From positions 1-62,173 of the forward strand of contig CADCFC010000004.1 of NCBI GenBank assembly GCA_902800645.1: a stretch of 62,173 bases of DNA, written 5' to 3'. The stretch is from an uncultured Erysipelotrichaceae bacterium. GTDB lineage: Bacteria > Bacillota_I > Bacilli_A > RFN20 > CAG-826. The position numbers and the translations under genes were made by a program. The notes under the pieces are model-generated. The model worked only from the letters and a program-made list of their open reading frames with translations, ran no database searches and was not told where the DNA came from. Below, piece after piece: positions 116-18,625 of this stretch. Position 1 is the first letter of the stretch. The number at the start of each line of letters is the position of its first letter.

Positions 116-1618
116 ATGGTGCGTTTTAAATTTTTAAAAATATATATCGCATTATCGTTAATGATAATTACAATATGTCTTATGAATAAAGCATTAGCGA
201 AGATTAAGCAATTCTTTGGATATCAAGATCTCACTAGAGACACTAGACCAATAGTGACAATGATTCTTTTCGCTATTCCTTTAGTGATTACTGCTTTTGC
301 AAATAACGGAATGTCTTTATTAAACTCAATTGTTTTAAAACATACTGTTGGCGGTGATAGTGTTACTGCAATTAATCAAACCTCATCATTATCATCTTTA
401 ATTCTTCAATTTGGATTTGGATGTACATCTGGGTTTGGTATTGTGATCGCTAATCTACATGGAGCGAAGAACTATGAAGGTGTGAAGAAGGCTATTGTTT
501 CTTCTATGCTTGCTTGTGTTGTTATTTGGTTAGTGTTAGGTGCTATTGGGATTGCCTCTTTAAGATCACTATTAAATGCACTTCACGTTAATGAATTATA
601 TTACGAGAAAGCTTATTTATATTTCGCTGTTGTTTTATCTTGTTATATCTTCAATTTACTCTCTAACTTATCAGGACATATCTTAAGAGCATTAGGTAAC
701 TCTTTTGTGGTATTGTTTACCACAATCTTTACTTTATCTTGCCAAGTTGGTGTTTGTTTCTTATTAACTTCTAAATCAATTGGTAATTTAGACACTGTTG
801 GAGCAGGACTAGCGATTATGGTAGCCTCTTTACTTAATGTGATTATTTCTTTTGCGATTATATTTAAAAAATATAAACCAAACAAAGAATCATTTAAGTT
901 TGACAAGACTATATATAAAGACTTATTTAGATTAGGTGTTCCTATTGGATTCCAGTGGTCAATATTATTCATTGGCTCATTTGTGGTCGCTAGCCAAGTT
1001 AATCTATATGGCGTTTATGCTTCTAAAGGTATGGCGGTATATACATCTTGGGAAGGTATCGCTGTTAACTCAGTAATGGGTGCATTAGGCACGATGATGG
1101 TGAACTTTGTTGGCCAAAACTATGGGGCTAAAAAGTATGACCGAGTTAAACGAGGGATACGAGATGGATATATCATTGTCTTGTGTGTTTATGCACTTAT
1201 CTTAGCGATTACTTTACCCACTACAAAACTAGTACCTTACATCTATCTTCCATATGATGAAGTTAATGAAAGAGTGTCATTTTACGCGACTACCTACTTG
1301 TATATCACTTTAACTGCCTCTTTATTCCAAGGGATATTAACTGTATCTAGAGGAGCGCTTCAAGGGATTAAGAAACCATTATTCCCATTTATTAGTGGTA
1401 TAGGGGAACTAATAGCCCGCATTAGTGTTTCTCTTCTCATTCCCTATTTAGTGGATCAAAACTACAAAGTTACTTTATCTGATCAAAGTTATATTGGATT
1501 ATCATTCTCTAACGCTTCTGCATGGCTTGTTTCTATGCTTGTTATGGGTGGAGCGGTATTCTTTATGATTTTGAACAATAAATCATTTGGGAAAGAAACT
1601 GATATAATTAAGGAGTAA
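116..1618 (+). CDS. MATE family efflux transporter
   Basis: 500-aa ORF that is hydrophobic throughout, with about 12 TM segments in two halves and a MatE-like N-terminus (RPIVTMILFAIPLVIT). The start is uncertain: ATG 116 lies inside a hairpin (101-123), and ATG 182 is an alternative. Confidence 0.75.
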   Translation: MVRFKFLKIYIALSLMIITICLMNKALAKIKQFFGYQDLTRDTRPIVTMILFAIPLVITAFANNGMSLLNSIVLKHTVGGDSVTAINQTSSLSSLILQFGFGCTSGFGIVIANLHGAKNYEGVKKAIVSSMLACVVIWLVLGAIGIASLRSLLNALHVNELYYEKAYLYFAVVLSCYIFNLLSNLSGHILRALGNSFVVLFTTIFTLSCQVGVCFLLTSKSIGNLDTVGAGLAIMVASLLNVIISFAIIFKKYKPNKESFKFDKTIYKDLFRLGVPIGFQWSILFIGSFVVASQVNLYGVYASKGMAVYTSWEGIAVNSVMGALGTMMVNFVGQNYGAKKYDRVKRGIRDGYIIVLCVYALILAITLPTTKLVPYIYLPYDEVNERVSFYATTYLYITLTASLFQGILTVSRGALQGIKKPLFPFISGIGELIARISVSLLIPYLVDQNYKVTLSDQSYIGLSFSNASAWLVSMLVMGGAVFFMILNNKSFGKETDIIKE

Positions 1619-1623
1619 ATTAT

Positions 1624-4032
1624 ATGAACAGGACTAAAAAACTATTTCTTATTGTCCCATGTGCATTCATGGTGTTTTCTTGTTCATGTAATCAACAACC
1701 AACTGGACATGTTCACGTTTTTGAAGACACCATAGTGGACGCAACATGTGAAGATAGAGGATACACAAGTCATATATGTAAAGATTGTGGTTATGAATAT
1801 CACGATTCCTTTACTGAACCTTTAGGACATGATTTCTCTACATTTATTGAAGAAACAGGTAACTTAGAGGCTGATGAAGGTGAGATTATTCATGAATGTG
1901 TTAATTGTCATCAAAGACAAGCAACATCGACGTCACAAATCAACAACAAAGAAAAAGGTCTTCCTGCTTATCAATTAGGAAACCACAAAGTATCCACGAC
2001 TGGCTATGGCAGCTCAAGTGTTACTGTTTCTATTTCTAACTTTAATTCTTTAGACCAATTGGTGATCTATTACTCATTTAATCCAGACTATGGTCTATTC
2101 TATAACCAATCATTTAAGCTCACTTTATATAGTGACAAAACATATAGTATCTTTGGCTATAACAGTGGTGAATACACGATTGTAGCCTCAGATAAGATGC
2201 ATTATTCAGTTGATGTGAGCACTGATACAGCGAATATTCTCTTCATGTATTCTGATTACAATGTCAGCCAACAAGAAGCAGTTGAAAACTTCGCTACATA
2301 TGTCGCCTTATATGAAAAGAATGGTAATGTTTTTGAATATAGACAATTAAATCCATATGTTATTCCAACCTTTAGTGAGACCTGGTTAAAAGTTAATGGA
2401 CATAACAAATTCTATTATTCCACCAAATATCAAAATCATCATGTTGATAATTGGCAAAGACCAGACATCACTCAAGCAGATACAAACTGGACATATTGCT
2501 GTCGTTGTGAAACCCCTGAAGAAGCTATTGTTGGTATGCTTATTTATCAAGAAAATGGGGCCACAAATGTCGACGTTAACCTTTTGTATTTAAAACCTAT
2601 TTATCGTAATCTAACTGACTTAGAAAGAATTTTTAAATCAGTGAAAGATATTGGCACTATTGCTGTTTATTACAATAGCGATGTCTCTCAAGAAGAAAGG
2701 ATGGATATGCTAAGACTTGCTGTCCAAGCAGGAGCGGGTGGTGTCGATTTCCAAGGCTTTATGTTTCATACAGGTTCAACATTAGACACTCATACTGATG
2801 AGAATGTTCAATATTGGAAAAACCTTGGATATGACATGTCATTTATTAACGCATCTCCAAAAGAAACCACAATTGATCCTGATGAAGATGCTTTACAAAT
2901 GCAATTCATTCAAGAAATTCATCAAATGGGTGGCAAAGTACTTGGCTCGCAGCATACAAGTGCACAATTTACACGTAGACAAGCAGTAGCGTATGGTGAG
3001 TTCCTTAACCATAGAGGTTTAGACATCATCAAGATTGTTTCTCACGCTTATAATAGAGCAGCCTTACAAGATACCTTAATGGCTAATGTTGATGCCTATA
3101 ATAGCGATAAGATTACCGCTAAATATTCAATTCATACGAATAACTCTTCTATCTCCGATATTTCTAGAGTTATTGGTCCTCTTTTCTATCACACCTATAT
3201 GGCGTTCCATTATACAAACTTATGCCACTTAAAATTAGTGATGGATCTATTACACAATCCAGATATCGTTTTTGAAGATTCAATCACTCCTGATGAAGCG
3301 ATTAATCGTATTGTTCATAAGTCCAAGGATCCTGAACTTCAATATTTAATAGATCAATACGCTTATCTTACTAGTGACTCCTTCTATGCTTATGGAAGCG
3401 GAAGCAACATGTCTGATAGATGGTCTGTTAATGGCAATAACACTACCTTGAGAATGAGAGATAGTGAAGGCACTAATAGTTTCTCAATTAGAGGTGGAGC
3501 GTTTAAATCGGGATGGACTTCAAATAATTTTGAATTTGAAACTTCATTATCTGGTTTCTTTAAACCATATTCTTCAAGCGCCAGACTTCCTAAGTTTGGA
3601 ATCTTCATTGGTGATCAAGACCACATGCTTGCATTTACATATAATTTTGTTGCTTCTAGTGGAGTGGGAACTTCTTACTCCGTCGGAGTGAAAACAAACT
3701 CATATTATTTTGGTTATGACAAAAAGACCAAAGACGCTTTAGATACAACGGTTGTTGAAAATACATCGGTGTCTAGTAATGTCGCTAATGGTGATTCTAT
3801 GCGATTAAAGGTTAGATACGTTGAAGGTGTTATCTCCTTCTACTATTCATCTGCAGCAAGTGGTGATTATACATTGTTGACCACTCTTCAATATGATGAT
3901 TGCAAAGAGTTTTTCACCCATGATTCTGATAAAAACGTATATTCTGGCAATGTGGTCGAAGTTTATTTAGGCAGTGCATCTGTTGGTGTCGAGAATACTG
4001 TTGCCTTTGCAAACAAGATAACTCTCCTATAA
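1624..4032 (+). CDS. Lipoprotein with a Cys/His-rich module, a type I 3-dehydroquinase-like TIM barrel and a ConA/LamG-like C-terminal domain
   Basis: SD AAGGAG lies upstream and the lipobox is MVFSC. The Cys-rich module reads ATCEDRGYTSHICKDCGYEY...HECVNCH. The central region aligns by eye to AroD type I motifs (LGSQHTS; LDIIKIVS; ISRVIGPLF). The C-terminus looks like a beta-sandwich (PKFGIFIGDQDH). It is a paralog of the 17331-18491 product. Confidence 0.6.
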   Translation: MNRTKKLFLIVPCAFMVFSCSCNQQPTGHVHVFEDTIVDATCEDRGYTSHICKDCGYEYHDSFTEPLGHDFSTFIEETGNLEADEGEIIHECVNCHQRQATSTSQINNKEKGLPAYQLGNHKVSTTGYGSSSVTVSISNFNSLDQLVIYYSFNPDYGLFYNQSFKLTLYSDKTYSIFGYNSGEYTIVASDKMHYSVDVSTDTANILFMYSDYNVSQQEAVENFATYVALYEKNGNVFEYRQLNPYVIPTFSETWLKVNGHNKFYYSTKYQNHHVDNWQRPDITQADTNWTYCCRCETPEEAIVGMLIYQENGATNVDVNLLYLKPIYRNLTDLERIFKSVKDIGTIAVYYNSDVSQEERMDMLRLAVQAGAGGVDFQGFMFHTGSTLDTHTDENVQYWKNLGYDMSFINASPKETTIDPDEDALQMQFIQEIHQMGGKVLGSQHTSAQFTRRQAVAYGEFLNHRGLDIIKIVSHAYNRAALQDTLMANVDAYNSDKITAKYSIHTNNSSISDISRVIGPLFYHTYMAFHYTNLCHLKLVMDLLHNPDIVFEDSITPDEAINRIVHKSKDPELQYLIDQYAYLTSDSFYAYGSGSNMSDRWSVNGNNTTLRMRDSEGTNSFSIRGGAFKSGWTSNNFEFETSLSGFFKPYSSSARLPKFGIFIGDQDHMLAFTYNFVASSGVGTSYSVGVKTNSYYFGYDKKTKDALDTTVVENTSVSSNVANGDSMRLKVRYVEGVISFYYSSAASGDYTLLTTLQYDDCKEFFTHDSDKNVYSGNVVEVYLGSASVGVENTVAFANKITLL

Positions 4033-4203
4033 AAAATATTTTTCATTATCATTAATGTAGTTTATTATAAAACTAATAATACTTTTACTTAAAACAAAAT
4101 CCCTCTTTTCTCAGTGATGATAAGTAGGAATTGAGACAAGAGTTATAATTTAAATTATAATAGTCTTCTATGACTAGGGCTTGTCAAAGTTTAGGAGGTT
4201 TTT

Positions 4204-5970
4204 ATGCATAATAAAAAACTATTATTAGGAATCATATGTTCTGGTTTTTTGTGTATGGGCGCAGTTATGGCTGGCCAGCAACAAAAAGAATATCAGCCTG
4301 TTTATGCGACCACTCCGGATCGTATTATTGCGTCTGATCAAGACATGATTGATTTTGTTGATGCATGTAACGCTGGCACAAATTTTGAAGGACAACTGGT
4401 TAGATTGGATGCTGATGTATCAATTACCCTTACTAAGCAACCAACTAATGACACGACTAACAAGATTTATTCTGTTTTTGCGGGTGAGTTTGATGGCAAC
4501 AATCACACAATCACTTTGGATATAAATACATCAAATACTGCTACAGGTATTTGGAGAAATATCAATGGTAATGTTCATGATTTAAATCTTGAAGGAACAA
4601 TTACAAATAGTGGGACATATGCTTCTCCATTATGCTTATATAACAATGGAACAATTAGAAATGTTAGTTCATCCATTACTGCCAGTTTACCTACAGTTGA
4701 TTATGTTTCGGGTATTTTATTTAGAAACAATTCTGGCGGTAAAATCTATGATTGCGAGTTTTCTGGTAATATTACTGGAAAGAATTATGTTGGTGGTATT
4801 GTTTCCGACAATCAAAGATATATGACTAGCTGTGTAAATAATGGAACAGTATCTGGAACCTCATATGTTGGTGGAATTGCTGCAACTACAGATAAACCTG
4901 AGACATTAAACAATACAAGTTATCTCCATATTACCAATTGTGTAAACAATGGATCTGTTTCAAGCACAACTGGTGGTTATGCTGCCGGAATAGTTGGGTA
5001 CTATTCACGCGGAAGAGTTGATAACTGTATTAATAACGGAACTATCTCTAGTTCAGGGCAATTTGTTGGTGGCATTACCGCTGCAATGGGTACAACTAGT
5101 AGCGCAAAGGTACCGTATGATGATTTATCATTGCTTAATTGCAAAAACTATGGCGATGTTTCAACAACTAATAAGAGCATTGGTGGCATTTCAGGATTTG
5201 CTTATCCAAACACAAAAATTAAATATTGTGATAATTATGGTAGTGTTAGCGCTTCGTCTAGTTCTGGCGTAGGTGGTATTGTTGGTTATATTAATCAATC
5301 ATGCACTGCCGAAGGTGCCGAAACACTAATCGAAGCTTGCTATAATGGTGGACATATTACTGGTAAAACATATTCTGGTGGAATTTTAGGATATGTTGGA
5401 AATGGTGTTACCCCTATTGTTCAAATCAATAATTGTTTTTCAACAGGAGACGTAGAATCTCCTGCGGCCAGTGGTGCAATAAATTGTGGAACACTAGTTG
5501 GCAAAGGCAATACTGGTGAATTAGGCGTAAATGCAAATTCATTTGCAGTTGGAGAATTAATTGCAAATGCATCAACATCTAATAAGGGATATGGCGTTGG
5601 TTCAGGAACTGCTGCTTCATCTGCATCATCACTTGCTAATGGCGTTTCTAACAACTTTAAAGCAGTAATTAAATTCATTAGAGAATATACATGTTCTGAA
5701 GATAAGACAGCCTTTAGAACTGCATTTGAGAGCTTATCAAGCGCGGAGCTTGGCTATTTAGCGCAAGTAACTTACTACGATGAGCTAACTCAATATGAAC
5801 AAACTTATTTAAGCGCTGCTAACTATATTAATGGTTATACAAACTCTCAATCATTTATGGTGTTATTTAACAGCAACAATCAAAGCGGATTGGTAATCAT
5901 CATCTTAGCGATTGCATCAATCTCTATTATTGCTGGTATCATCATTATTAGAAAAAAGAAAGCAAGTTAA
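4204..5970 (+). CDS. GLUG-repeat surface protein with a C-terminal TM anchor
   Basis: SD AGGAGG and a signal peptide are present. A cap motif (FAGEFDGNNHTITLDI) is followed by about a dozen repeats of the type NCxNxGxVsG..YVGGIxG. The protein ends in a hydrophobic helix plus RKKKAS and has no LPXTG. Confidence 0.7.
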   Translation: MHNKKLLLGIICSGFLCMGAVMAGQQQKEYQPVYATTPDRIIASDQDMIDFVDACNAGTNFEGQLVRLDADVSITLTKQPTNDTTNKIYSVFAGEFDGNNHTITLDINTSNTATGIWRNINGNVHDLNLEGTITNSGTYASPLCLYNNGTIRNVSSSITASLPTVDYVSGILFRNNSGGKIYDCEFSGNITGKNYVGGIVSDNQRYMTSCVNNGTVSGTSYVGGIAATTDKPETLNNTSYLHITNCVNNGSVSSTTGGYAAGIVGYYSRGRVDNCINNGTISSSGQFVGGITAAMGTTSSAKVPYDDLSLLNCKNYGDVSTTNKSIGGISGFAYPNTKIKYCDNYGSVSASSSSGVGGIVGYINQSCTAEGAETLIEACYNGGHITGKTYSGGILGYVGNGVTPIVQINNCFSTGDVESPAASGAINCGTLVGKGNTGELGVNANSFAVGELIANASTSNKGYGVGSGTAASSASSLANGVSNNFKAVIKFIREYTCSEDKTAFRTAFESLSSAELGYLAQVTYYDELTQYEQTYLSAANYINGYTNSQSFMVLFNSNNQSGLVIIILAIASISIIAGIIIIRKKKAS

Positions 5971-5976
5971 ATATAT

Positions 5977-8900
5977 ATGAGACGAAATAGTGGATTTAAA
6001 GCTTTAACTATCGTTATTTCCACTATTTTTCTTTATTCTTGTTCATGCTCGTGTTCATATAATCAATTGAATCAAGCATCTCTTTCATTTACTCAAGAAT
6101 CATTAGTAATTAGTGTTAATCAAGAGTTAGATTTATTAAATATCATTGATTATAAGAATGTTGTTAATGGTGTGATATTTACTCTTGAAGACAATGATAA
6201 TGTTTTGTCTTTAACTGACACCACTATTAAGGGATTAAAAGTAGGTGAATGCACTGTTAAGGCTATATATCAAAGCTTAGTGGATACTTTAGAGGTATCT
6301 GTTGTTACTAACAAACCTCAAGTATCATATTTAGAAACTAACTATGAGTTTGATATCAGCAAAGGTGTCTTCCCAATCAAAGATAAAATCACTGTTAGTC
6401 CATTAACCGCTACTCTTGAATTAAGTTCAACTAGAACTGATTTCTCATTTAGTAATGGAAATATTACTTTTGGTGGCACTGGAAATTATTCATTCACTTT
6501 AAAAGCAAAGTATCAAGAAGCTTATAGTGCGAATTATAACTTCACAGTTTACGCTTATGATTACTTAAAGCTTGATGGAAGAGGAACGGTAGAAAATCCA
6601 TTTATTATCGCTACCGCTAGCGATTTAAAAGAATTAAGTGATGAAGTTCTTAACTATAAAGATTTAAAAGATAGATATTTCCTTCAAGCAGAAGATATCG
6701 ATATTAGTGAATATGACAATTGGACTCCAATTGGAACTTTTGGTGTTCCATTTGAAGGCATCTATAACGGAAACAATAAAAAGGTCACTGGATTAAACAT
6801 TAACACTCATGATTCATGGCAAGGTTTATTTGGATTCTCTAGTGGCACAATTAAGAATTTAACAGTTTATGGTGAGGTGAATGTCACTTGCCATCCTGAT
6901 TATGTTTATTCCCACTCATTCTGTGCAGGCATTTGTGGTGGATTATATAACAATGCGTTAGTGGATAACTGCACTAATTACGCTAATGTCCATGGCGACT
7001 CATATGTTGGCGGTATTGTTGGCGGTATTGCCCGTAGTGATGAGATGATTGTGGGAAGAGAACAATCCCAAATCGTCAACTGTAAAAACTATGGTGTAAT
7101 TTCTGGTGACGATACCTTTGCGATCAATGAAAGCGCGATGTATTTTGGTGGTATCGTTGGTGAGTCTCTTGGCATCTTAACCGGCAATGAAAATTATGGT
7201 GAAGTGAATGTCACTGGCACTAAGACAAAATACGTTGGTGGAGTGTGTGGACTTGGCTACATCATTTACAAATATGGAATGTATTTTGATGAGCCGATGG
7301 AGAACTACGCAAACAACGATAACATCAATCACGGAAAGGTCACAGGATACCATTCTGTAGGTGGTGTTTTTGGTGCAAATGTTCTTCCTTCTCACGGCTG
7401 TATTAACTATGGTGAAGTCAATGGTGATATCTGTGTTGGTGGTGTTTCTGGATTAAACGGAACCTCATCTGTTTTAGAGAACAATTATTCGATATCTTTA
7501 CTCGAAAATTGCGAAAATTATGGAAAAATACGTGCAAATCTACGTTATTCTGGCGGAATTACCTCATGTTCATACTTTGATGTTAATAGCTGTGTTAACT
7601 ATGGAGAAGTAACTGGTGGACCATCAGTTTATTACGTTGGTGGCGTTGTCGGATATCAAAGTAACGGAAACATTTTTAACTGTGAAAGTGATGAACTTGG
7701 AACTGTCACTGGCTATCATTCTGTAGGCGGTATTGTTGGTCATTCAAACACCAATTCTTTGTCCATTACTAGCTGTGTGAATCACTCCAAAGTTAGTTCA
7801 TTTAATGACGCTGATGATGAGTCAGTTCATATCGGTGGTATCGCTGGAATTTTAGGAACAAATAACACGATTAATGACTGCAATAACTATGGTGAAGTGA
7901 CTGGAAAAGGAACAAGAAACAGTCCATCTCGTTGGGGCGGTATCGGCGGTATTGCTGGTTCCATTTATAACAGTTCAAAAATCTTTAACTCAAAGAATTA
8001 TGGTGATGTAACTGGTAAGCAACAAGTCGGTGGAATTTTTGGTTATTCAAATGGCAATATTTTGACCGCTGTTCAAGATTGCCAAAACCAAGGAGATATT
8101 AAGTCTACTCATTCAGATCCACATCTAGGTGGTATCGCTGGAAGAATTAATGGAACAGCATTATTTAATTGTTTGAATAGTGGAAACTTAGTGGTTGAAA
8201 GTGGTGCTACTAATGTTGGTGATATATATGGTAGTGCGGCAAGCGCTACAAATAACGGAAATAAAGTAAGTGGAGATGGCTATAGTCCATATTTCTACCT
8301 CTTTAGTGGTGGAAAAGGATATGAAGACGATCCATTTATTATTAGGACCACAAAAGATTTTGAATTATTAAGAGAAAGAGTGTCCTCAACTGATGAGAAC
8401 GCTTCTCAAGAATATATCTATTACAAACTAGACGCTGATATTACTGTTACTGGTGGTTTATTGTCCACCAAAGAGTTTAAAGGTGTCTTTGATGGTAACA
8501 ATCACTGCATTACATTTAATTACAGTAACACCAGTAAAGATGAGGTTGCCTTGTTTGGTATTAATAGAGGCTTTATTAAAGATCTTGTGGTTGCTGGATC
8601 AATCACTGGTAGAAACTATTTAGCGTCTGTTGCAGTTACTAACTATGGCACAATTGAAAATTGTAAGAACCACGCAATAATTAGTGGTAACTCCCGTATT
8701 GGTGGCGTTGTTGTTACTAATAAAGGCGTTATCAATAACTGCCTTAATGAAGCAACTATTACTGGTTCATCGCAATACCTAGGTGGTATAGCTGGTGTTA
8801 ATGGTTCTGATTCAGAAGGTGGAACAATTATTAATTCAGTTAATGAAGGACCGGTTGAATGCACCGCTAGTACCTCTCAATATTCCTTTAATGGTAACTG

Positions 8901-9750
8901 TGTTGGTGGCGTTGTTGGATTTGTTTATGGAAATAGTCAAACCGTTATTACTAATTGTTATAACTCTGCAAATGTTCAAGGTAGAGCGTCTTTGGGTGGT
9001 ATTACAGGCTTTATTAAGTCAGGTACAGGTGCAACCATTAGTAATTTAATTAACACAGGTAATATTACAGGTGTTGGTGGTAGTGATGGTGCCACATATT
9101 GTGGTCATATTGGCGGTATCGTTGGTATGCTTGGTTCTAATGTAGACATTAGTAATTGTTATAGCACTGGAGATGTTTCTGGTAATGGTGGAAAAGAAAA
9201 CAGCAACTGGAGAGGTGTTGGTGGAATCGTAGGTAGTTTCTACGCGGGCACAATTAGTGAATGTTTCTCTACTGGTAGCGTAATCGCTAATATGCTTGGT
9301 GGAGGAATTGTTGGATATTCTCAAGGAACAGCTTCTAAAACAGTTTCTAACTGCATTAGTGGTGGATCCTATTCAAATAGTAGTGATAATGGTGGAATTC
9401 TTGGTAGAGGTAATAACACCACAATCAAAGATAGTATTTCATTTGCTTCTGGTGTTGAATCCAGAATGATTTATGGTTATGGATCGACTGTTAATTCTAC
9501 TAATAACTCCACATTTACTGGTTCATCAAAGATGAACTTATTACTTGGCAATTTGATTTTTGGATTAGCAACTACTGATCATGATGTTGCAGTGGAACGT
9601 TTAGAGTTAATTGCAATTGCTTTAAGTCAACTTAATAGTGTTGATACCACTATTTTAAATAGTTACTACAGTAGCACTAAGACAATTCAAGATTTCTATA
9701 ATGAGGTTGTCGCTTATCTTGAGAATATCATTAACGGAGGTACATTATGA
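5977..9750 (+). CDS. Large GLUG-repeat lipoprotein with Big_2-like domains and two cap+array units
   Basis: The lipobox is FLYSC followed by SCSCS. The N-terminus carries Ig-like (Big_2-type) segments. Two cap motifs (PFIIATASDL...FEGIYNGNNKKVTGLNI near 6584; DPFIIRTTKDF...FKGVFDGNNHCITFNY near 8329) are each followed by GLUG repeats (YVGGIVG, HSVGGIVG and similar). The TGA stop overlaps the next ATG. Confidence 0.7.
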   Translation: MRRNSGFKALTIVISTIFLYSCSCSCSYNQLNQASLSFTQESLVISVNQELDLLNIIDYKNVVNGVIFTLEDNDNVLSLTDTTIKGLKVGECTVKAIYQSLVDTLEVSVVTNKPQVSYLETNYEFDISKGVFPIKDKITVSPLTATLELSSTRTDFSFSNGNITFGGTGNYSFTLKAKYQEAYSANYNFTVYAYDYLKLDGRGTVENPFIIATASDLKELSDEVLNYKDLKDRYFLQAEDIDISEYDNWTPIGTFGVPFEGIYNGNNKKVTGLNINTHDSWQGLFGFSSGTIKNLTVYGEVNVTCHPDYVYSHSFCAGICGGLYNNALVDNCTNYANVHGDSYVGGIVGGIARSDEMIVGREQSQIVNCKNYGVISGDDTFAINESAMYFGGIVGESLGILTGNENYGEVNVTGTKTKYVGGVCGLGYIIYKYGMYFDEPMENYANNDNINHGKVTGYHSVGGVFGANVLPSHGCINYGEVNGDICVGGVSGLNGTSSVLENNYSISLLENCENYGKIRANLRYSGGITSCSYFDVNSCVNYGEVTGGPSVYYVGGVVGYQSNGNIFNCESDELGTVTGYHSVGGIVGHSNTNSLSITSCVNHSKVSSFNDADDESVHIGGIAGILGTNNTINDCNNYGEVTGKGTRNSPSRWGGIGGIAGSIYNSSKIFNSKNYGDVTGKQQVGGIFGYSNGNILTAVQDCQNQGDIKSTHSDPHLGGIAGRINGTALFNCLNSGNLVVESGATNVGDIYGSAASATNNGNKVSGDGYSPYFYLFSGGKGYEDDPFIIRTTKDFELLRERVSSTDENASQEYIYYKLDADITVTGGLLSTKEFKGVFDGNNHCITFNYSNTSKDEVALFGINRGFIKDLVVAGSITGRNYLASVAVTNYGTIENCKNHAIISGNSRIGGVVVTNKGVINNCLNEATITGSSQYLGGIAGVNGSDSEGGTIINSVNEGPVECTASTSQYSFNGNCVGGVVGFVYGNSQTVITNCYNSANVQGRASLGGITGFIKSGTGATISNLINTGNITGVGGSDGATYCGHIGGIVGMLGSNVDISNCYSTGDVSGNGGKENSNWRGVGGIVGSFYAGTISECFSTGSVIANMLGGGIVGYSQGTASKTVSNCISGGSYSNSSDNGGILGRGNNTTIKDSISFASGVESRMIYGYGSTVNSTNNSTFTGSSKMNLLLGNLIFGLATTDHDVAVERLELIAIALSQLNSVDTTILNSYYSSTKTIQDFYNEVVAYLENIINGGTL

Positions 9751-11690
9751 AAAAGACCCCGTTAACATTATTAATGTTAAGTGCCTTAACCATTTCCTCT
9801 TTTGTTATTGGAATTTCTGCTAAAGAAAAACAAGTTAACGCCGCAATTTTAACATATACTGATTTGATCAAAGCTAAACCTGGAATGGTTAGTAATTCAT
9901 ATTTATATGAATCTGTGATGAATTATTCATTTGAACCAGGTTCGATTGGGTATTTTGATATCGCTGATTCAACAACAAAATCTATTACCTATGAATTTGG
10001 TTATGAAAATAACGGTATTGGTTCAGCATTATATTTAGACACTCCTGGTGGTGGATTTAACACCCGCATGAGATGTAGAACGTATTCCAACACTGATATT
10101 TCTTCTTCAGAAGGTGTGATGTTTTATATCGACTTCTCTTCTATTAAAGCTGAAGGAAGCAGTTACGTAGGTGTTGGATTAGGTCTTATGTTTATGGACT
10201 CATCAGTTGAACCTCCAAGTGGAAACAACATGTTTGATGAATCTCATAGATCTGGTCACTTTAGACATTACTATCCAGTTGAAACTAGAACTGCCTATTA
10301 TTATGACTTATTTGAAGGTAGGTTCATGCCTACCACAATTATTAATAATTGTGCAGTTGTTAAGGAAGGATACCAAGGATGGATTTATATTCCGTTTACT
10401 TCTTATGGATGGAACGGAAATTCTGATAGCAAATACGCAGTTAACACTGACGCATTTGATGAAGGATATAAGTGGCTTAACTATTCTCATTTCTTAACAA
10501 GCAACTTCAAGAGTGATGACACTCAATCAAGAATCTATTTTGATGAATTAACATTTATTAAGAGAACAACTCAAAACGTTGTTAACTATGAATATCAATC
10601 TGATCTAGCAGCGACATGTTTTGATGTTGGTGGAAAGATTTATAAAGATAGTAGTTCTAACAATTACAAACTCACTGATATTACGAATAAACTCACTCAT
10701 GACTATCAATATCTGAAGTTTAAAGATGGCGCGATTGGAGTGTGCTCTCACTGTAACGATTTAGTGTTTACAAGAGATGCAGAACATGTAGGAAGTGCCT
10801 TAAATGGTGATGTTTCTAACTATATTGACGTTCATTTCCACTATGGCAAGAGTTTAGAAAACGAAGAAGTTGTTATCGTTAATCTTGCTGAGTTTGTTTC
10901 TAAAGATAAAGAACCAAGAGTGAATCGAGTCACTATGGATGATTCTTGGGACTATGATTTCTCAGCGTGGTCTAGTGACACGAATGTTTACACTCCTAAA
11001 GATCCAAAAGTCACTTTACATATGAGCGAGACACATTACTTTGCAAAATATTTAATCTCATCATATGACAACGTTAAGTATTCACATGTTCCTAACTTGT
11101 TAGCATTACATGGTGGTAGATATAAATGCAATACTGGCAAGATTGTTATGAACGGTAACTCTAACTTCGCTTTAGCGTATAACACTACTAGTGACTATGC
11201 GAATCGTGGTTTACCACTTATTAATAACGCTGTAGCAGGTGGATCTTCATATGATTACTATTATTACGCTGATCAATTAGTGGTGGGCTATGCTCCTAAG
11301 ATTTTGTTATTTAACTTAACCACTAACGATCAAGCATATTGGAGTATGTCAGAAAAAGATATCATAGATATCACTAAGCAATATGTTGCTAGAGTACATG
11401 AAGCTTTACCTGATTGTATCTTTGCAGTTGTTAATGGTTCACCTCTTCCTGGAAGAAGTGAGATGTTCGCTACTGTTGAAAGAGTGAATAACCAAATGAA
11501 GAAATATGCTGAGACTGTAGATTATATCTACTTTATCGATACTTATGATTTCGTCTATGAAAGAATGATGGAATATCCGGATGGATGGGAATTCTGGACT
11601 CATATGGAAACTGATACCTTATCCACATGGATGAATTTAATCGCTGATGGAATAGATGAAATCGTTGCAGAAAGGGGGATTGTTTTCTAA
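9747..11690 (+). CDS. Secreted protein with an N-terminal beta-sandwich-like region, a Cys/His module and a C-terminal SGNH/GDSL-like domain
   Basis: SD GGAGG, an ATGA overlap and a signal peptide are present. The Cys/His module reads ATCFDVGGK...CSHCNDL. The C-terminal region has SGNH-like blocks (MNGNSNF; LTTNDQ), but the block V His is unclear. Confidence 0.5.
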   Translation: MKKTPLTLLMLSALTISSFVIGISAKEKQVNAAILTYTDLIKAKPGMVSNSYLYESVMNYSFEPGSIGYFDIADSTTKSITYEFGYENNGIGSALYLDTPGGGFNTRMRCRTYSNTDISSSEGVMFYIDFSSIKAEGSSYVGVGLGLMFMDSSVEPPSGNNMFDESHRSGHFRHYYPVETRTAYYYDLFEGRFMPTTIINNCAVVKEGYQGWIYIPFTSYGWNGNSDSKYAVNTDAFDEGYKWLNYSHFLTSNFKSDDTQSRIYFDELTFIKRTTQNVVNYEYQSDLAATCFDVGGKIYKDSSSNNYKLTDITNKLTHDYQYLKFKDGAIGVCSHCNDLVFTRDAEHVGSALNGDVSNYIDVHFHYGKSLENEEVVIVNLAEFVSKDKEPRVNRVTMDDSWDYDFSAWSSDTNVYTPKDPKVTLHMSETHYFAKYLISSYDNVKYSHVPNLLALHGGRYKCNTGKIVMNGNSNFALAYNTTSDYANRGLPLINNAVAGGSSYDYYYYADQLVVGYAPKILLFNLTTNDQAYWSMSEKDIIDITKQYVARVHEALPDCIFAVVNGSPLPGRSEMFATVERVNNQMKKYAETVDYIYFIDTYDFVYERMMEYPDGWEFWTHMETDTLSTWMNLIADGIDEIVAERGIVF

Positions 11691-13291
11691 TGAAAAAGAA
11701 ATTAGGACTATCATTATTCTCCCTTGTCTTATTAATAGGCTCTTTATCTTCTTGTGGACCAGAACCAAATTATATTTCAAATGTTGGTAAGAATTATTAT
11801 CGTGTTGAATTTAACACTAATGGTGGATCACCAGTTGAACCATTATTCACTAACATGATTGAAACTGAACCAGTTTCTTCTAAAGAAGGATATTCATTAC
11901 TTGGTTGGTACGTCACTAACGAGTTAGCGTTAATTGCTTTCCCATATACAGTTACTAGTAACGTAACTTTAAAAGCCTTATGGAATCAAAATAGATACAC
12001 AGTTCATTTTGAGGCCAATGGTGGTTCTCCAGTAGAAGATCTTATAAATGTTACTTCTATTGATTCTTGTAAAGAAACAATTAGAGATGGCTATACGTTT
12101 ACTGGATGGCATGTCTCTCAATCTTTAGATGATGACACAATTACATATCCATATGTTATTAAAAATAACATTACACTTTATGCTTCTTGGAGTAGAAACG
12201 AGATTGTTCCTAGCGGAGTAAATCTTGCTAACTCTAAAATTGATGCGATGGAAGCTAAATCATATTGGAGTTTTGAATATAAAGAGAACTCAATTCAATT
12301 TGATATTAACGTTACTGATCCATTCTTATATGGATTCAATGTGAATCCAGGATTAAATGATAATGTTGAAGTGGTTATTGGCACTAAACAAGCATCTAAT
12401 CCATCAGGACTTAATCTAAGCAATACTTATCACTTCTTAGTGGATATCAATGGATATGGTTACTATAACACTCCTATTAATGCCTATACTTGGAGTAGTG
12501 CGATGAATATCCCTGAGGGCGTCACTATTAGTACAGTTAAGGCAAATATTGAAGAACGTGGATTTAATGGCTATATGAGCTCGTTTGATATCCCATATTC
12601 GATGTTTGGATTATCAAGAGCACAGGCTATTAATAACTTAGTGATGACTGCAGGAATTAGAAACACTAATTCATATACCGCTAGTAACTGGGAAACTGCT
12701 ACCGGAAATAACTATTTGTCAAGTTGGACATATTACACCTTAAGTGAAGATGGACAATTTATCTTTAGTGATATTGATTCTGATACTGTCCTCATTGGTG
12801 GAAGTAACTACTCAATTGAAAACTTCTCTTCAATCAATAGTGTTCTTGCTCCACATAATGCATATTCATTCTCTGAAGAGATTACTTTAGAGAAATGGGA
12901 TAAAAAGATTGATGCGATTTTGAACTTCAACACTGATAAGCTCATCCTCAATTTAGGAAGATATGATTACTATGCGAATAAATTAAGTAGTGATGAAATC
13001 ATTGAAGGTATTGCGGGTATTGTAGAGAAGTGTTTAGCGAAATATTCTACAAATGCTATTTACGTTACCTCTATTGAGCCTCTTAAGAACTTCTCCACAA
13101 ATATTAATAGCTTTAAAAACATCAACGATTCATTAAAAGATAAGTGCAGTGAACTAGGTGTCAATTATATTGATACGCATTCACTCTTTATTAAAGATAA
13201 CAAGATTGACACTACTATGTTTAAGAACAATTTTGTGTTCTCAACTACAGGTATGGAAAAGTATTGGAATGTCATAGAGACATATTTATAA
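11690..13291 (+). CDS. Lipoprotein with two Listeria-Bacteroides (Flg_new) repeats, a sugar-binding-like middle domain and a C-terminal SGNH-like domain
   Basis: The gene has a TAATG overlap with its upstream neighbour and the lipobox LSSC. Two repeats read Y.V.F..NGGSPVE...GY.F.GW....L. The C-terminal region has LIGGSNYS and YIDTHSLF motifs. Confidence 0.55.
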   Translation: MKKKLGLSLFSLVLLIGSLSSCGPEPNYISNVGKNYYRVEFNTNGGSPVEPLFTNMIETEPVSSKEGYSLLGWYVTNELALIAFPYTVTSNVTLKALWNQNRYTVHFEANGGSPVEDLINVTSIDSCKETIRDGYTFTGWHVSQSLDDDTITYPYVIKNNITLYASWSRNEIVPSGVNLANSKIDAMEAKSYWSFEYKENSIQFDINVTDPFLYGFNVNPGLNDNVEVVIGTKQASNPSGLNLSNTYHFLVDINGYGYYNTPINAYTWSSAMNIPEGVTISTVKANIEERGFNGYMSSFDIPYSMFGLSRAQAINNLVMTAGIRNTNSYTASNWETATGNNYLSSWTYYTLSEDGQFIFSDIDSDTVLIGGSNYSIENFSSINSVLAPHNAYSFSEEITLEKWDKKIDAILNFNTDKLILNLGRYDYYANKLSSDEIIEGIAGIVEKCLAKYSTNAIYVTSIEPLKNFSTNINSFKNINDSLKDKCSELGVNYIDTHSLFIKDNKIDTTMFKNNFVFSTTGMEKYWNVIETYL

Positions 13292-13330
13292 ACATAAGGT
13301 ACAATAAAGGTACAGAAACGGAGAATAGTA

Positions 13331-13702: not shown

Positions 13703-13725
13703 ATATTTAGAATAAAGAAAAATGA

Positions 13726-13754: not shown

Positions 13755-13767
13755 AGAAAATATATTA

Positions 13768-15336
13768 CTATTTATTGTTTATGTTGTTATATACTTTGCC
13801 TTCTCCGACAGTGTCGTAACCAACTATATATCCATACATCTCTATAGAGATATCATCATCAATAATATATTGACCATTGTTAACACATCCAATAATTGTG
13901 GCTTGATTGTAACCAACAATTCCACCTAATGAAACAGTGCCAAAAGTTGCAATGGATTCAAAGTCTCCATTATTTACACAATTCAATACGTATCCACCTG
14001 TTGCTTGTGCGAATCCAACAATTCCGCCTATACGATATTTACCTTTAACAAGGTTGCTATTATCACAATCCTTAATAGTGGAGTTATAGTTACTTCCTGC
14101 AATACCACCAACACCGCCATTAGTTGATCCTAATCCATGGACATACCCTTCATTAGAACAACTCTGGACAGTTAGGTTACTACCAAGCATTCCAACAATT
14201 CCACCAACCCAATATGAAATATTGGAAGTGTTACCATTAATTTCACCATTATTAACACAGTTAGTGATATTAGATCTACAGTATCCAACAATACCTGCTA
14301 CTCCAACTCCACCTGAAATTTTGCCTTGGTTTCTAGAGTTATTAACAGTAGTGGAGTTTCTAGCATTGCCAACAATACCACCGATGTTTTCACTACCAGT
14401 GATATCACCAGTATTAACACAATCAGTGATATATGTGTTGAAGTTATTACCAATGATACCTCCGGTACCACCTAATGCTTTTCCTGATCCAATTACATCT
14501 CCATGGTTCTCACAATGTGAGATAGTAGCACCACTACCACAGACACCGATAATTCCACCTAAGCCAGAATAGTTTTCAACTAAATAATCTTTAGCGGATA
14601 TTGTTCCAAAGTTTTTACAGTTAGTAAGAGATCCAATTTTATTGGATGAAACCATGTTATATCCGATGATACCACCAATACAGTTGGTGCCAGTAACTGT
14701 ACCACCTAAATATGAACATAATTCAAGATTTCCACCAGCGTTACATCCAATAAATCCACCGACGTATTTGCCAACTACGTTTACATTACCTGATGAGGTA
14801 CAGCTAGATATGTTTCCGTAATTGATTCCAACGAATAGACCAAAGGCTATTCCGTTAGTGATGCCTCCAGAAAGGAAGACATTATTAATGTTCAATCCTC
14901 TGATTGTGCCAGAATTGGAGTTGAAGAATCCTTTTCTTTCAGCGGTAACGTTCATTGAGATGTTTTTGATCGTGCGGTTATTACCATTAAACGTTCCTTT
15001 AAATGAACCACCGGAAGTTCCAGTGCCGATTCCTAGCCAATCAATGTTATTCAAATCGATGTTTACATTTAGTGTTACGAACTTATTGAGATAATAGCTT
15101 TTTGCACTAAGAGAACTACGGAAATAAGCGAGTTCTTTCGCGTTATTAATTTGATATGGGTTATTTTGAGTGCCATCACCATACTCAAAAGTAGAAGCGA
15201 CAGTGCCATCCCAAACATCATATTCTTCTGGTTCTTTATAAACCTCATGTTTTGAGGTGCTTTGAGGCATATCAAAGGATGCACAACTAGTGAGAAGCAA
15301 CGCTAATAATGATGCAACAATAAATCTATGTTTCAT
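13768..15336 (-). CDS. GLUG-repeat lipoprotein
   Basis: The lipobox is LLTSC. The cap motif is NPYQINNAKELAYF...FKGTFNGNNRTIKNISM, followed by repeats of the type NCxNxGxIsG...IGGIVG. Confidence 0.7.
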   Translation of the reverse strand: MKHRFIVASLLALLLTSCASFDMPQSTSKHEVYKEPEEYDVWDGTVASTFEYGDGTQNNPYQINNAKELAYFRSSLSAKSYYLNKFVTLNVNIDLNNIDWLGIGTGTSGGSFKGTFNGNNRTIKNISMNVTAERKGFFNSNSGTIRGLNINNVFLSGGITNGIAFGLFVGINYGNISSCTSSGNVNVVGKYVGGFIGCNAGGNLELCSYLGGTVTGTNCIGGIIGYNMVSSNKIGSLTNCKNFGTISAKDYLVENYSGLGGIIGVCGSGATISHCENHGDVIGSGKALGGTGGIIGNNFNTYITDCVNTGDITGSENIGGIVGNARNSTTVNNSRNQGKISGGVGVAGIVGYCRSNITNCVNNGEINGNTSNISYWVGGIVGMLGSNLTVQSCSNEGYVHGLGSTNGGVGGIAGSNYNSTIKDCDNSNLVKGKYRIGGIVGFAQATGGYVLNCVNNGDFESIATFGTVSLGGIVGYNQATIIGCVNNGQYIIDDDISIEMYGYIVGYDTVGEGKVYNNINNK

Positions 15337-15339
15337 ACC

Positions 15340-17331
15340 TTACTCCATTACGTAATCCTTTGCGGTAATAGCCACGTTAAATGTGTTTAGTCCAAAGTAG
15401 GCTTTGGATAAACCAAAGTTGGTGACGTTTTGTAATGTTCTTACTTCTGATTCACCAAAAGAAAATGTGTATAGATCTTCATTTCTATCAATACCTAACT
15501 TGATATAGTTACCATATTGGTAAGCGACGGGGGAACCCACACTATAATTGAATGAAACGTAGTCGGAGAATACTCCTCCAGTTACTAAGCAATATCCTAA
15601 ATCAACACCTTCCATTGAAGATCCGTTTCCGGCAGCGTCTACATAGTAGAAGATTCCATTAAACTCATCATCAACTAGTATGATTCCAAACTTTGGATAT
15701 AAATCAAAATTAATTACGCTATTAGCGGTGATACTAGCGGAGAACGATAGCTTGTTGCTGTTATTTTTATATGCATACAAAGTATTTAATGCATTGCCAC
15801 TAGTAATAGTGACGTTTGGATTATCTCCTGTATCATTTGATAAATCCCAGCCTTCAGTCATTCTTAAGTTAGAAACATTTCCAAAGAAGTTACTATTCAT
15901 AACATAGTTATTTTCATCGAGATTGTTATTTGCAATAGATGGATATGTTTTAATGTTTGATGTTTCAGTGTTCAATTCTCTACTATATGTAGGTTTGTCA
16001 TTGATGATGTTGCCAAATGAAACATATATCTTTCCTGTTTCTTTAGGAAGCTTAAGTGACATTTGATATCGATTGTCTTTAACTAGTTCCACACTTTGTT
16101 CAAAGTTTGGATGTTGAGTGGTTTCCACTAGCTTTTGTTGCGATGATGAATATACATAATACGAGACTGAATTATCAACGTATAGATTAACCATCTTAAG
16201 ATTGTTAATATCAACGCTTTCATCATCACTTGCTTCAACATATTTGATGGATATTCCATCATTAATGGAGATATTGCTATTAGTGGATTTAACTGTGACG
16301 TTTTGATTATCAAAAGCGAATTCTGATTTATTGGTTTCACCATCTTTTATAGATTCAACAGCAAAACTGTTAGTTAATGTCTTTTCTTGTCCTTTGTCTT
16401 TGATTTCAAAGGCTACTTTTTCATTAACTTCATTAAATGAAAGATACGCTTTTCCAAATAGATTGCCTAATTTGATTTCCCCTTTTGCGTCGAAGTGTTT
16501 ACGGTCCATATTATCGTCATTACGAGATATATCCGCATTAATTGTATCGATATAGTAATTCCTAGAATCGCTATCCATGATTTCTTTCTTAGCGGAGTTG
16601 ATATCTCTATAAGAGAGGTGATAGTAAGAAGAAACACCTGAATCTAAGAACATCATTCCATTTTTAGGAGCATATTCTTGGTATCTAACTTTGATATCGT
16701 TAACGAAGTTTTCTAAATACTCTTTGTAGTTATACTCTCCGTTTTTAGCATCGCTTTCACCTTGGACAAACATAAAGACAGAAACATCAAAATCAATATT
16801 GCTATTTTTAAGTTTTAGGAGCTGCTCTTCAAAGAAGGTGTTCATTTTTTGATAATAGACACCATGATCGATATTCCATTGATATTTGAAGTTAGATTCT
16901 CCACCTCCTGCAAACTTGATGATGTAGAAGGTTTCATCTTGTTTGAAGTTTGATAATACTTCTGCTATACCTACTTCAGGACCTAAACATCCATATTTAA
17001 TACCTTCATTAGGAGCTTTACCTTGTCCTAATCTAGTCTTAATGAATGATGTTTGTTCTTTATGAACAAGCTTAGTGGTTAACATGTTACGGTATGAGAT
17101 TTTTACGTTATCGTATCCGTTTGTGTATTCTTTGAATTTTTGATCGCTCACACCTTCAAATTCGGTTAAGTGATATGAGTATGAAAAACCTAAGCAGTCT
17201 TCATCTCCTGCTAAAAGAATTACATGACTCTTGTTGTCCTTTACCGGTTCATCATAAATAACTCTTGGTGAAGGAGGTTCATTACAAGAGACTAATAATG
17301 GTAGAACAAGTAAAAGTAATGGTTTTTTCAT
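15340..17331 (-). CDS. Lipoprotein with an N-terminal SASA (sialate O-acetylesterase-like, SGNH) domain and a C-terminal ConA-like domain
   Basis: The lipobox is LLVSC. SASA-type motifs FVQGESDA and DRKHFDAKGEIKLG are present, but block I reads LLAGDEDCLGF instead of GQSN. The C-terminal PKFGIILVDDEF module resembles the C-terminus of the 1624-4032 product. Confidence 0.55.
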   Translation of the reverse strand: MKKPLLLLVLPLLVSCNEPPSPRVIYDEPVKDNKSHVILLAGDEDCLGFSYSYHLTEFEGVSDQKFKEYTNGYDNVKISYRNMLTTKLVHKEQTSFIKTRLGQGKAPNEGIKYGCLGPEVGIAEVLSNFKQDETFYIIKFAGGGESNFKYQWNIDHGVYYQKMNTFFEEQLLKLKNSNIDFDVSVFMFVQGESDAKNGEYNYKEYLENFVNDIKVRYQEYAPKNGMMFLDSGVSSYYHLSYRDINSAKKEIMDSDSRNYYIDTINADISRNDDNMDRKHFDAKGEIKLGNLFGKAYLSFNEVNEKVAFEIKDKGQEKTLTNSFAVESIKDGETNKSEFAFDNQNVTVKSTNSNISINDGISIKYVEASDDESVDINNLKMVNLYVDNSVSYYVYSSSQQKLVETTQHPNFEQSVELVKDNRYQMSLKLPKETGKIYVSFGNIINDKPTYSRELNTETSNIKTYPSIANNNLDENNYVMNSNFFGNVSNLRMTEGWDLSNDTGDNPNVTITSGNALNTLYAYKNNSNKLSFSASITANSVINFDLYPKFGIILVDDEFNGIFYYVDAAGNGSSMEGVDLGYCLVTGGVFSDYVSFNYSVGSPVAYQYGNYIKLGIDRNEDLYTFSFGESEVRTLQNVTNFGLSKAYFGLNTFNVAITAKDYVME

Positions 17332-18491: not shown

Positions 18492-18608
18492 AAGACACAC
18501 CTCACGATAAAATAATTATAAATAATATATATTTTATGTTGTACATAAATTTGTCTTTTGTTGTTTTTGAATGAATAAATAATTAATGGATATAACGACA
18601 AATATTTT

Positions 18609-18617: not shown

Positions 18618-18625
18618 GAAATGCG

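Follow-up and report, generated by a model that had tools for sequence, protein, structure and literature searches.

Type I 3-dehydroquinate dehydratase (AroD, or type I DHQase) is regarded as a single-function cytoplasmic enzyme of the shikimate pathway and has been studied as an antibiotic target. It is a member of the class I aldolase (Schiff-base) superfamily. Its residues Glu46, Arg48, Arg82 and Gln236 reportedly contact the ligand in the structures attributed to Gourley (1999) and Light (2011). In the reaction, Lys170 forms an imine (Schiff base) and His143 acts as acid/base (PMC4114755), and Arg213 makes a salt bridge to the substrate carboxylate (PMC13247285). Here we analyse a protein of 802 residues (aa) encoded at positions 1624..4032 of the forward strand of a 62,173-nucleotide stretch of contig CADCFC010000004.1, from an uncultured Erysipelotrichaceae bacterium. 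The stretch as a whole is called the window, and the protein the target or long form. Its central domain is almost certainly a diverged homolog of AroD with the DHQase fold, and the target itself is very probably not a dehydroquinase. According to the alignments, the Schiff-base core is retained and the dehydroquinate-specific residues are lost. We propose, with a probability of roughly 45%, that the target is a lipid-anchored, cofactor-free Schiff-base lyase or dehydratase acting at the cell surface on a putative carboxylated keto-sugar. The neighbouring genes and the fusions of the barrel suggest a part in degrading acetylated and acidic glycans.

Homology and active site of the barrel

The 802-residue open reading frame (ORF), which has an ATG start, lies at exactly the coordinates given in the initial annotation of the window, which had recognised in it, by eye, a type I DHQase-like barrel behind a lipobox. 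With standard family searches this resemblance is barely visible. The sole Pfam match is DHquinase_I (PF01487) with 16 bits and an E-value of 0.014 over residues 424-527, below the gathering score of 22.2 bits. NCBIfam gave no match, and neither a phmmer search of PDB sequences with the target alone nor an hmmsearch with a profile of the 13-sequence long-form family returned anything significant. Homology to PDB sequences became significant only once the profile was widened through a paralog and a clade of stand-alone proteins. The bridging paralog, a short form encoded elsewhere in the window (17331-18500), passes the Pfam DHquinase_I threshold with 29.9 bits and shares 33% identity with the target barrel (E 1e-35). 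When the long-form and short-form family profiles were compared with hhalign, they matched at 100% (E 2e-63) over target residues 277-546, and the paralog profile matched E. coli AroD with 81% probability. An alignment of 53 clade sequences, which share 20-30% identity among themselves, retrieved AroDs from the PDB at E-values of 9e-22 to 1e-7; beyond these it matched only the class I aldolase MJ0400 in the PDB, and that weakly. Against an alignment of four canonical AroDs, the same 53-sequence alignment scored 99.9% in hhalign (E 5.4e-31) over 224 columns, covering the whole barrel. No match of the target to the NanA/DHDPS family PF00701 was found in Pfam, NCBIfam or the PDB at E-values up to 10. 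Six long-form relatives (25.8-35.1 bits) and the stand-alone relatives (52-71 bits) lie above the Pfam threshold, which places the target as a divergent edge member of a wider family that falls inside PF01487.

Structure comparison points the same way. An AlphaFold2 (AF2) model of the target, built on 13 homologs, has a mean predicted local distance difference test score (pLDDT) of 85.9, with the barrel blocks mostly above 90. Compared with the PDB by Foldseek, the model finds type I DHQases at all of ranks 1 to 25, with E-values of 3e-9 to 8e-8 and target-normalised template-modelling (TM) scores of 0.69-0.77. These include the Salmonella enzyme, the Arabidopsis DHQ-SDH and the C. difficile enzyme, with those of Enterococcus and Geobacillus lower in the list. 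Both structure and profile comparison thus come out nearest to AroD and to no other TIM-barrel family, and the barrel assignment of the initial annotation holds.

The residues were mapped from the alignment to AroD, for which three independent alignments agree. AroD S141 and H143 correspond to S442 and H444 of the target (H444 codon 2953..2955), D167 and K170 to D467 and K470 (K470 codon 3031..3033), R213 to R515 (codon 3166..3168) and D114 to D375, all six being invariant in 53 of the 53 clade sequences. H444, K470, R515 and D375 are also invariant in the 13-sequence long-form family and in the joint long/short alignment, a degree of conservation well beyond chance, and the set invariant throughout the clade is Y350, D375, Q425, S442, H444, D467, K470 and R515. 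The alignment puts K470 on the strand that bears K170 in AroD, from which its side chain would point into the C-terminal mouth of the barrel. The motifs picked out by eye in the initial annotation (GSQH444TS, LDIIK470IVS, VD375FQ377GF and ISR515VIGPLF) are all present and had been correctly aligned, and its view that the catalytic His and Lys are kept is borne out by the multiple alignment, in which the H444 and K470 columns fall on H143 and K170, an equivalence that is alignment-based.

Around this core, the substrate-binding part of the site differs from AroD. R48 is replaced by N319 (mostly His in the clade) and R82 by Y350, a Tyr in 53/53 sequences. E86 falls in a gap and has no counterpart, the loop being 7 residues shorter, and the S232-Q236 lid loop between beta8 and alpha8 is deleted in the long form; a Q236-type loop is kept in the short and stand-alone forms and lost in the target. 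Of the other positions, E46 corresponds to D317, a conservative change (Met in the short form), E116 to Q377, aligned and not conserved through the clade, and F225 to F528, aligned and either F or L. The clade carries a specific insertion of 36-40 residues after beta4 (residues 381-420 of the target, 2764..2883), which stands as a gap opposite AroD in the hhalign alignment. It contains E414 (codon 2863-2865), which is Glu in 45 of the 53 clade members and in 9 of 9 fusion proteins checked. E414, on a different loop, may replace E86 as the partner of the His. According to the titles of PDB entries 4guh and 4gug, E86A AroD was crystallised as a covalent reaction-intermediate complex, and the E86A enzyme is said to retain activity (Light and co-workers, 2013).

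Equivalog scores also separate the target and its relatives from AroD. The NCBIfam equivalog model for aroD, TIGR01093, has a cut-off of 139.3 bits; the target does not match it, the paralog reaches 21.5 bits, and a sample of ten clade members gives 27-50 bits, although the same ten pass Pfam DHquinase_I at 52-71 bits. In the domain scans of its ORFs, the 62-kb window contained no aro genes and no canonical aroD. On the residue evidence, activity on 3-dehydroquinate or quinate esters appears unlikely. The new substrate specificity that the initial annotation had suggested is thus strengthened, by the loss of residues contacting dehydroquinate, by scores far below the AroD equivalog cut-off and, as described below, by a context of extracellular glycan processing in genes and fusions instead of shikimate biosynthesis. 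That the barrel is catalytically active through its Lys is, in our judgement, rather probable.

Domain architecture, export and the wider clade

All the features of the target lie on the forward strand. It begins with a signal peptide (1624..1683) made of a K/R-rich N-region and a hydrophobic core, followed by small-small-Cys, and ending in the lipobox MVFS-C20, whose Cys codon is 1681-1683; the N-terminus reads MNRTKKLFLIVPCAFMVFS-C20. The family counts about 14 full-length homologs from metagenomes, with identities of 32-99%. C20 is kept in at least 90% of the relatives, whose lipobox reads [TSV][AS][SG]C, and residues 1-27 have a pLDDT below 50 in the AF2 model. With an lgt gene also present in the window (36405-37181), the target is a predicted bacterial lipoprotein.

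The signal is followed by a Cys/His-rich beta-hairpin module (residues 28-104, 1705..1935), all-beta in the model, with H31, C42, C52, C55, H69, C92 and C95 conserved. Possibly it forms a stalk of the zinc-ribbon or disulfide-knot kind. The module, of about 40-75 residues with the pattern H.H...PTC...GY..H.C..CGY.Y.D.F...GH and no Pfam family, is common to many otherwise unrelated surface proteins of Firmicutes, including Ig-like ones (P0015-P0021), and is found in tandem copies in P0003, P0010 and P0012. It also occurs at the N-terminus of the paralog and in lipoproteins combining Glug and SASA domains (for instance 8019-11048 in locus L050). The next domain (residues 105-240, 1936..2343) is all-beta, with DSSP strands from 115 to 238 and a pLDDT of about 90. 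It has no Pfam or NCBIfam match and is missing from the short paralog. Residues 241-287 (2344..2484) then form a highly conserved linker, which could equally be an extension of the barrel at its N-terminus, with a dense run of invariant positions from N243 to P280 with the motif NPYV..SETW.KVN..YY.TKYQ..W.RPD; from W277 onward it can be aligned with the short form. The (beta/alpha)8 barrel itself, recognised by Foldseek, hhalign and the clade profile, comprises residues 288-545 (2485..3258).

Residues 583-802 (3370..4029) are modelled as a two-sheet jelly-roll sandwich of the concanavalin A (ConA)-like fold. Modelled alone, this domain has a pLDDT of 90.9 and a predicted TM score of 0.90. Its Foldseek neighbours are 3mep and, found with a Foldseek probability of 1.00, Gal/GalNAc legume lectins, VIP36/ERGIC-53, C-terminal domains of GH43 enzymes and PL7 proteins, yet the TM scores are only 0.4-0.52. 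It holds 27 invariant residues and thus exceeds what a passive spacer would need. No Pfam family matched it, including DUF1080, the family of 3-keto-disaccharide hydrolases. A role as a DUF1080-type hydrolase or as a PL7 lyase was considered and is not proposed here, PL7 appearing only at rank 33 with a TM score of about 0.5. The lipobox, Cys-rich module and ConA-like domain listed in the initial annotation are therefore all recovered, from the conserved Cys, the conserved columns and the domain model with its Foldseek matches, respectively.

An exhaustive profile search with the joint barrel alignment retrieved 496 cluster representatives (clusters at 50% identity). Of the top 150 of these, about 109 stand alone and lack a signal peptide, and about 23 have several domains and are mostly exported. 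The stand-alone proteins are 250-290 aa long and come from metagenome-assembled genomes (MAGs) of Clostridia and Bacilli. The exported form is thus a minority branch of a larger, mostly cytoplasmic clade. The initial annotation had called an exported DHQase-fold enzyme unexpected and had not seen that the window alone encodes two such lipoproteins, both within this large clade. Clade members (P0082-P0235; for instance MBQ8407175.1 and P0227) are named 'type I 3-dehydroquinate dehydratase' by NCBI, which is probably a systematic misannotation affecting reconstructions of the shikimate pathway. In the literature we found no description of a non-shikimate family of type I DHQase-like proteins.

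Several exported members carry the barrel within larger proteins, and these fused barrels retain all core residues. Three proteins (P0108, P0110 and P0113) combine Big_3, the barrel, BNR_2 and an F5/8-type-C (CBM32-like) domain. P0119 is built of the barrel, GDSL and BNR_2, and P0127 of BNR_2, the barrel and SASA; in the latter, the SASA part matches solved sialate O-acetylesterases (E 1e-33 to 1e-16) and the BNR part matches exo-alpha-sialidases (E 2e-10). A protein of 4795 aa (P0084) carries the barrel, two GDSL domains and a GH88-family domain. Finally, P0076 (601 aa) consists of a signal peptide, the barrel, a ConA-like domain and a type I dockerin, and represents a cellulosomal version. 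The giant surface proteins that bear the barrel span 2000-4800 aa. Nothing relevant was found in the literature linking a DHQase-like domain to sialidases, esterases, dockerins or cellulosomal proteins, or PF12831.

Gene neighbourhood of the long and short forms

The target follows a MATE-family transporter gene (116..1618, forward strand; Pfam MatE 95 bits, NCBIfam matE 112 bits, short of the cut-off for the subfamily), which ends 5 bp upstream of it and is probably co-transcribed with it. The transporter also has a weak Pfam match to Polysacc_synt (flippase). Downstream on the same strand lies the gene of a 588-aa exported GLUG-like repeat protein (4204..5970), with a signal peptide, a C-terminal transmembrane segment and a KKKAS tail, by which it is predicted to be anchored in the membrane, rather than sortase-linked or lipid-anchored. 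Its homologs are found after the long form in L004 and L005 and inside the short-form operon in L011 and L012. It is followed by a 1257-aa GLUG-motif lipoprotein (5977..9750; Pfam Glug, lipobox LYSC), for which no PDB relative was found, and by two genes for exported SGNH/GDSL-like esterases of 647 and 533 aa (9747..13291), recognised by Pfam and by a signal peptide and lipobox. Their Lipase_GDSL_2 scores are 31.8 and 20.9 bits, both below the gathering cut-off of 32.9 bits, and the 533-aa protein carries Listeria-Bacteroides repeats (Flg_new).

The paralog belongs to a compact module on the reverse strand (13768..18500), formed by a GLUG lipoprotein (13768-15336; Pfam Glug), a SASA-family esterase (15340-17331; Pfam SASA) and the short DHQase-like protein of 389 aa (17331-18500), all three products being predicted lipoproteins. 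For the paralog, the listed GTG start gives VCLMKNKML, and the ATG at 18491 (M4) gives the canonical lipoprotein signal MKNKMLSLPLVAISLFSC; a database entry (P0022) starts it at M8, so that the charged N-region is lost. Divergent from the paralog is a FAD_oxidored (PF12831) gene (18626..19720, forward strand; Pfam 177.6 bits), whose product has an N-terminal GxGxxG and no signal peptide and is hence predicted to be cytoplasmic. PF12831 proteins are repeatedly encoded near clade members, namely near the window paralog and near those of L050-L053, and the protein aligns with solved structures through its Rossmann N-terminus only.

This organisation is conserved in other genomes. In 12 of 12 loci (L007, L009, L011-L020), from MAGs of ruminal Bacilli and Erysipelotrichaceae, Christensenellaceae and other Clostridia, the short form lies between GLUG and SASA genes with overlapping gene ends. 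An AraC regulator stands upstream of the short form in the loci with Pfam annotation (L007, L009 and L010), and a MatE gene also adjoins the module in L009 and L010. A GLUG-like gene comes after the long form in the window, L004 and L006; the window also has GDSL-type esterase genes downstream of it, and L006 a GDSL gene close by. Ahead of the long form, L002 and L006 have a divergent AraC gene, and in L002 the long form lies beside murG, murB and ftsZ. The cytoplasmic clade members sit in small AraC-linked operons. They are accompanied by genes for a short-chain dehydrogenase/reductase (SDR), a zinc-dependent alcohol dehydrogenase (Zn-ADH) and a PF12831 flavoprotein in L052 and L053, by Zn-ADH alone in L049, and by a GFO/IDH/MocA gene, a PF12831 flavoprotein and a Glug+SASA lipoprotein in L050 and L051. 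L050 and L051 are closely related to each other, as are L052 and L053, and the contigs of P0082 and P0123 are too short to give a gene context.

As for the rest of the window, a tRNA-Met(CAT) and a tRNA-Ala(TGC) (19763-19920, reverse strand) lie between the island of surface-protein genes (116-19720) and the housekeeping genes. The border of an acquired island may lie here, yet the GC content is flat, at 0.34-0.36 throughout. A 1009-aa ORF (55128-58157, forward strand) was considered as a Glug+SASA fusion of the kind seen in L050, and rejected. The match in length is coincidental, no Pfam family was found in it at E-values up to 1e-3, and it is followed by an MscS gene, not a flavoprotein. Another ORF, of 391 aa (23246-24421, forward strand), also matched no Pfam family, at 1e-5. 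Genes of the xanthine-dehydrogenase type are found further on, all on the forward strand. Two of them are FAD_binding_5 genes (38548-39342 and 48369-49220), one encodes a molybdopterin subunit (39795-42122) and one a 2Fe-2S subunit (47905-48372); genes for PALP enzymes, an M20 peptidase and a carbamoyltransferase come next. The domain scan covered the ORFs on either side of the interval from 42124 to 47915. This content suggests that the region from 38548-49220 onward is a purine or amino-acid fermentation island.

Proposed function and comparison with known systems

In the mechanism that we propose, an acidic sugar would be held through its carbonyl, keto or aldehydo, as an imine of K470, R515 would bind the carboxylate of the substrate, and H444, perhaps paired with E414, would move protons. 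The imine could then serve as an electron sink for beta-elimination of water or another leaving group, as in DHQase, or for retro-aldol C-C cleavage, as in NanA and KDPG aldolase. Candidate substrates would be sialic acid, another 2-keto-3-deoxy-ulosonic acid, or a 4-deoxy-5-keto-uronate arising from unsaturated uronates. The neighbouring acetylesterases and GLUG proteins would supply the substrate, and the ConA-like domain may bind the glycan. This chemistry needs no cofactor and would thus suit an extracytoplasmic protein, which has no access to NAD(P) or ATP. Sialidases and GH88/GH105 hydrolases both release sugar acids of the 2-keto-3-deoxy type. Because of the products expected from the sialidase and GH88 fusion partners and because of the invariant carboxylate-clamp Arg, we suggest, tentatively, that the substrate is an acidic keto-sugar from a de-O-acetylated glycan. 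More doubtful still is the idea that the barrel founds a class of carbohydrate-active enzymes of its own. It would then be a cofactor-free lysine-imine lyase or dehydratase derived from type I dehydroquinase, acting outside the cell on acidic keto-sugars as the constant companion of SGNH acetylesterases and GLUG beta-helix proteins in Firmicutes of the rumen and gut, and the cytoplasmic relatives, at present annotated as AroD, would perform an overlooked step of sugar-acid catabolism.

A number of observations weigh against an acidic keto-sugar lyase at the cell surface. In the domain scans of the window, neither the gene cluster nor the remaining ORFs showed a sialidase or sialic-acid catabolic genes. 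The SASA, GLUG and FAD-oxidoreductase proteins of the window have no informative PDB or NCBIfam relatives. Since both sialate esterases and the CE6 acetylxylan esterases of rumen bacteria fall in the SASA family (PMC9487903), the neighbouring esterase does not fix the nature of the glycan. Most clade members are cytoplasmic and lie beside SDR, Zn-ADH, GFO/IDH/MocA and FAD oxidoreductases, neighbours that would fit a substrate first oxidised to a ketone, an oxidation that would be difficult on the cell surface. The carboxylate stands beta to the imine carbon in AroD, and alpha to it in ulosonic acids. Finally, we found no enzyme assay, nor any other literature, for a member of the clade.

The same oxidoreductases form the basis of a different proposal, in which the substrate would be a neutral keto- or aldo-sugar undergoing beta-elimination from a 3-keto-glycoside, of the kind known from oxidative cleavage of glycosides, or a 'peeling' elimination from the imine of a reducing-end sugar. 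The repeatedly linked PF12831, GFO/IDH/MocA, SDR and Zn-ADH proteins could make or remove a keto group, the DHQase reaction is itself a beta-elimination next to a ketone (PMC4114755), and a ConA-like domain is attached to the barrel. We consider this improbable: the carboxylate-clamp Arg, invariant in 53/53 sequences, points to an acidic substrate, the FAD oxidoreductase beside the paralog is predicted to be cytoplasmic while the barrel is outside, and the ConA-like domain is not recognised by the DUF1080 model or any other in Pfam. In another proposal, the locus would serve to remodel or scavenge polymers of the bacterial envelope, not glycans of the diet or host. These could be O-acetylated peptidoglycan or polymers of the teichoic-acid type, with elimination, for instance, of the D-lactyl ether of N-acetylmuramic acid after de-O-acetylation, and with the MATE/MOP-type transporter exporting or importing a partner molecule. 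Peptidoglycan O-acetyl esterases are found among the SGNH esterases (PMC9487903), the partners are all lipoproteins of the cell surface, and the MatE gene, with its weak Polysacc_synt match, adjoins the target at 5 bp and reappears in L009/L010. The proximity of murG, murB and ftsZ fits as well, but is seen in one lineage only, and AraC-type regulators by nearly every copy suggest a catabolic system induced by its substrate, and fusions to dockerin, sialidase, CBM32-like and GH88 domains are hallmarks of the degradation of exogenous glycans. Such an envelope function therefore seems very improbable.

An equally slim chance is given to a pseudoenzyme, that is, a non-catalytic ligand-binding or scaffold module within surface glycan-binding proteins. 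The score of the target below the Pfam threshold, the disappearance of several catalytic and binding residues of AroD, E86 included, and the binding-type modules around the barrel (ConA-like and Cys-rich, and Ig-like in relatives) would be expected of one. Pseudoenzymes normally lose their nucleophile, however, and here K470, H444, R515, D467, S442, D375 and Y350 are invariant in 53 sequences at 20-30% identity and in the fused versions; nor would the loss of E86 be disabling, judging from the E86A AroD discussed above, with E414 a candidate replacement. At the opposite extreme, the target could be a genuine dehydroquinase, or a dehydratase of a related cyclitol carboxylate, used at the surface on plant quinate or shikimate derivatives such as chlorogenic acids, with the esterases freeing quinate. 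AroD is the closest fold and family, the Lys, His and carboxylate-clamp Arg are retained, the SDR, Zn-ADH and GFO/IDH/MocA dehydrogenases adjoining the cytoplasmic members recall aroD-ydiB in E. coli, and the hosts are rumen and gut bacteria that meet plant phenolic esters. Replacement or deletion has affected R48, R82, E86 and the S232-Q236 loop, however, which in AroD bind dehydroquinate or assist His143, and TIGR01093 scores are 0-50 bits against the 139-bit cut-off. The conversion of quinate to 3-dehydroquinate requires NAD(P) or PQQ (pyrroloquinoline quinone), unavailable to a lipoprotein outside a Gram-positive cell, the chlorogenate esterases known to us are alpha/beta hydrolases, not SGNH enzymes, and the sialidase, CBM32-like, GH88 and dockerin fusions indicate polysaccharides. 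We hold this explanation to be highly improbable.

If the target is an active acidic keto-sugar lyase or dehydratase, as we propose, it would add a new cofactor-free step to glycan breakdown in the gut and rumen, and would give a function to the very conserved GLUG-barrel-SASA module of uncultured Firmicutes. More generally, a clade of about 500 clusters has kept the covalent core of type I dehydroquinase and replaced its pocket, and part of it is now found on the cell surface, in cellulosomes and in giant sialidase/esterase proteins. Under their present name, these proteins can wrongly credit genomes with a step of the shikimate pathway in metabolic reconstructions.

Compared with known systems, the target is closest to AroD (EC 4.2.1.10; PF01487/TIGR01093; Salmonella structures 3M7W and 1QFE), to which it is homologous along the whole barrel and whose fold is the nearest. 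By alignment it shares the Schiff-base Lys on the equivalent strand, the acid/base His, the Arg213-type clamp and equivalents of S141, D167, D114 and F225, and its chemistry is predicted to be likewise cofactor-free. It differs in being exported, lipid-anchored and multidomain, with 802 aa instead of about 250. It also differs in its pocket (R48 to N, R82 to Y, neither E86 loop nor S232-Q236 lid loop, and an extra insertion of 36-40 residues with E414) and in its neighbours, which are GLUG proteins and SGNH esterases and none of the shikimate pathway. NanA and the class I pyruvate aldolases (DHDPS/NAL, KDPG/KDG) also form a lysine imine in a TIM barrel, with a 2-keto-3-deoxy sugar acid whose carboxylate is held, a type of reaction that the sialidase, sialate esterase and GH88 fusion partners would suggest, but this is an analogy of working only: no sequence relationship is detectable in Pfam, NCBIfam or the PDB, NanA is cytoplasmic, and a retro-aldol reaction in the target is purely hypothetical.

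The stand-alone members of the clade, such as MBQ8407175.1, have the same invariant residues and are linked to AraC regulators, GLUG/SASA proteins and PF12831 flavoproteins; the target adds to them a lipobox, the Cys-rich module, the beta domain and the ConA-like domain. Some of the surface sialidase/esterase proteins of gut Firmicutes (BNR_2 with SASA or GDSL and CBM32-like domains) and of the cellulosomal dockerin enzymes are likewise exported and carry the same barrel with Lys, His and Arg intact. Unlike them, the target itself contains neither a glycoside hydrolase nor an esterase domain, such activities, if present, coming from the neighbouring genes. Thus, the fold and the type of chemistry are known ones, whereas the localisation, the architecture, the substrate pocket and the gene partnership are new.

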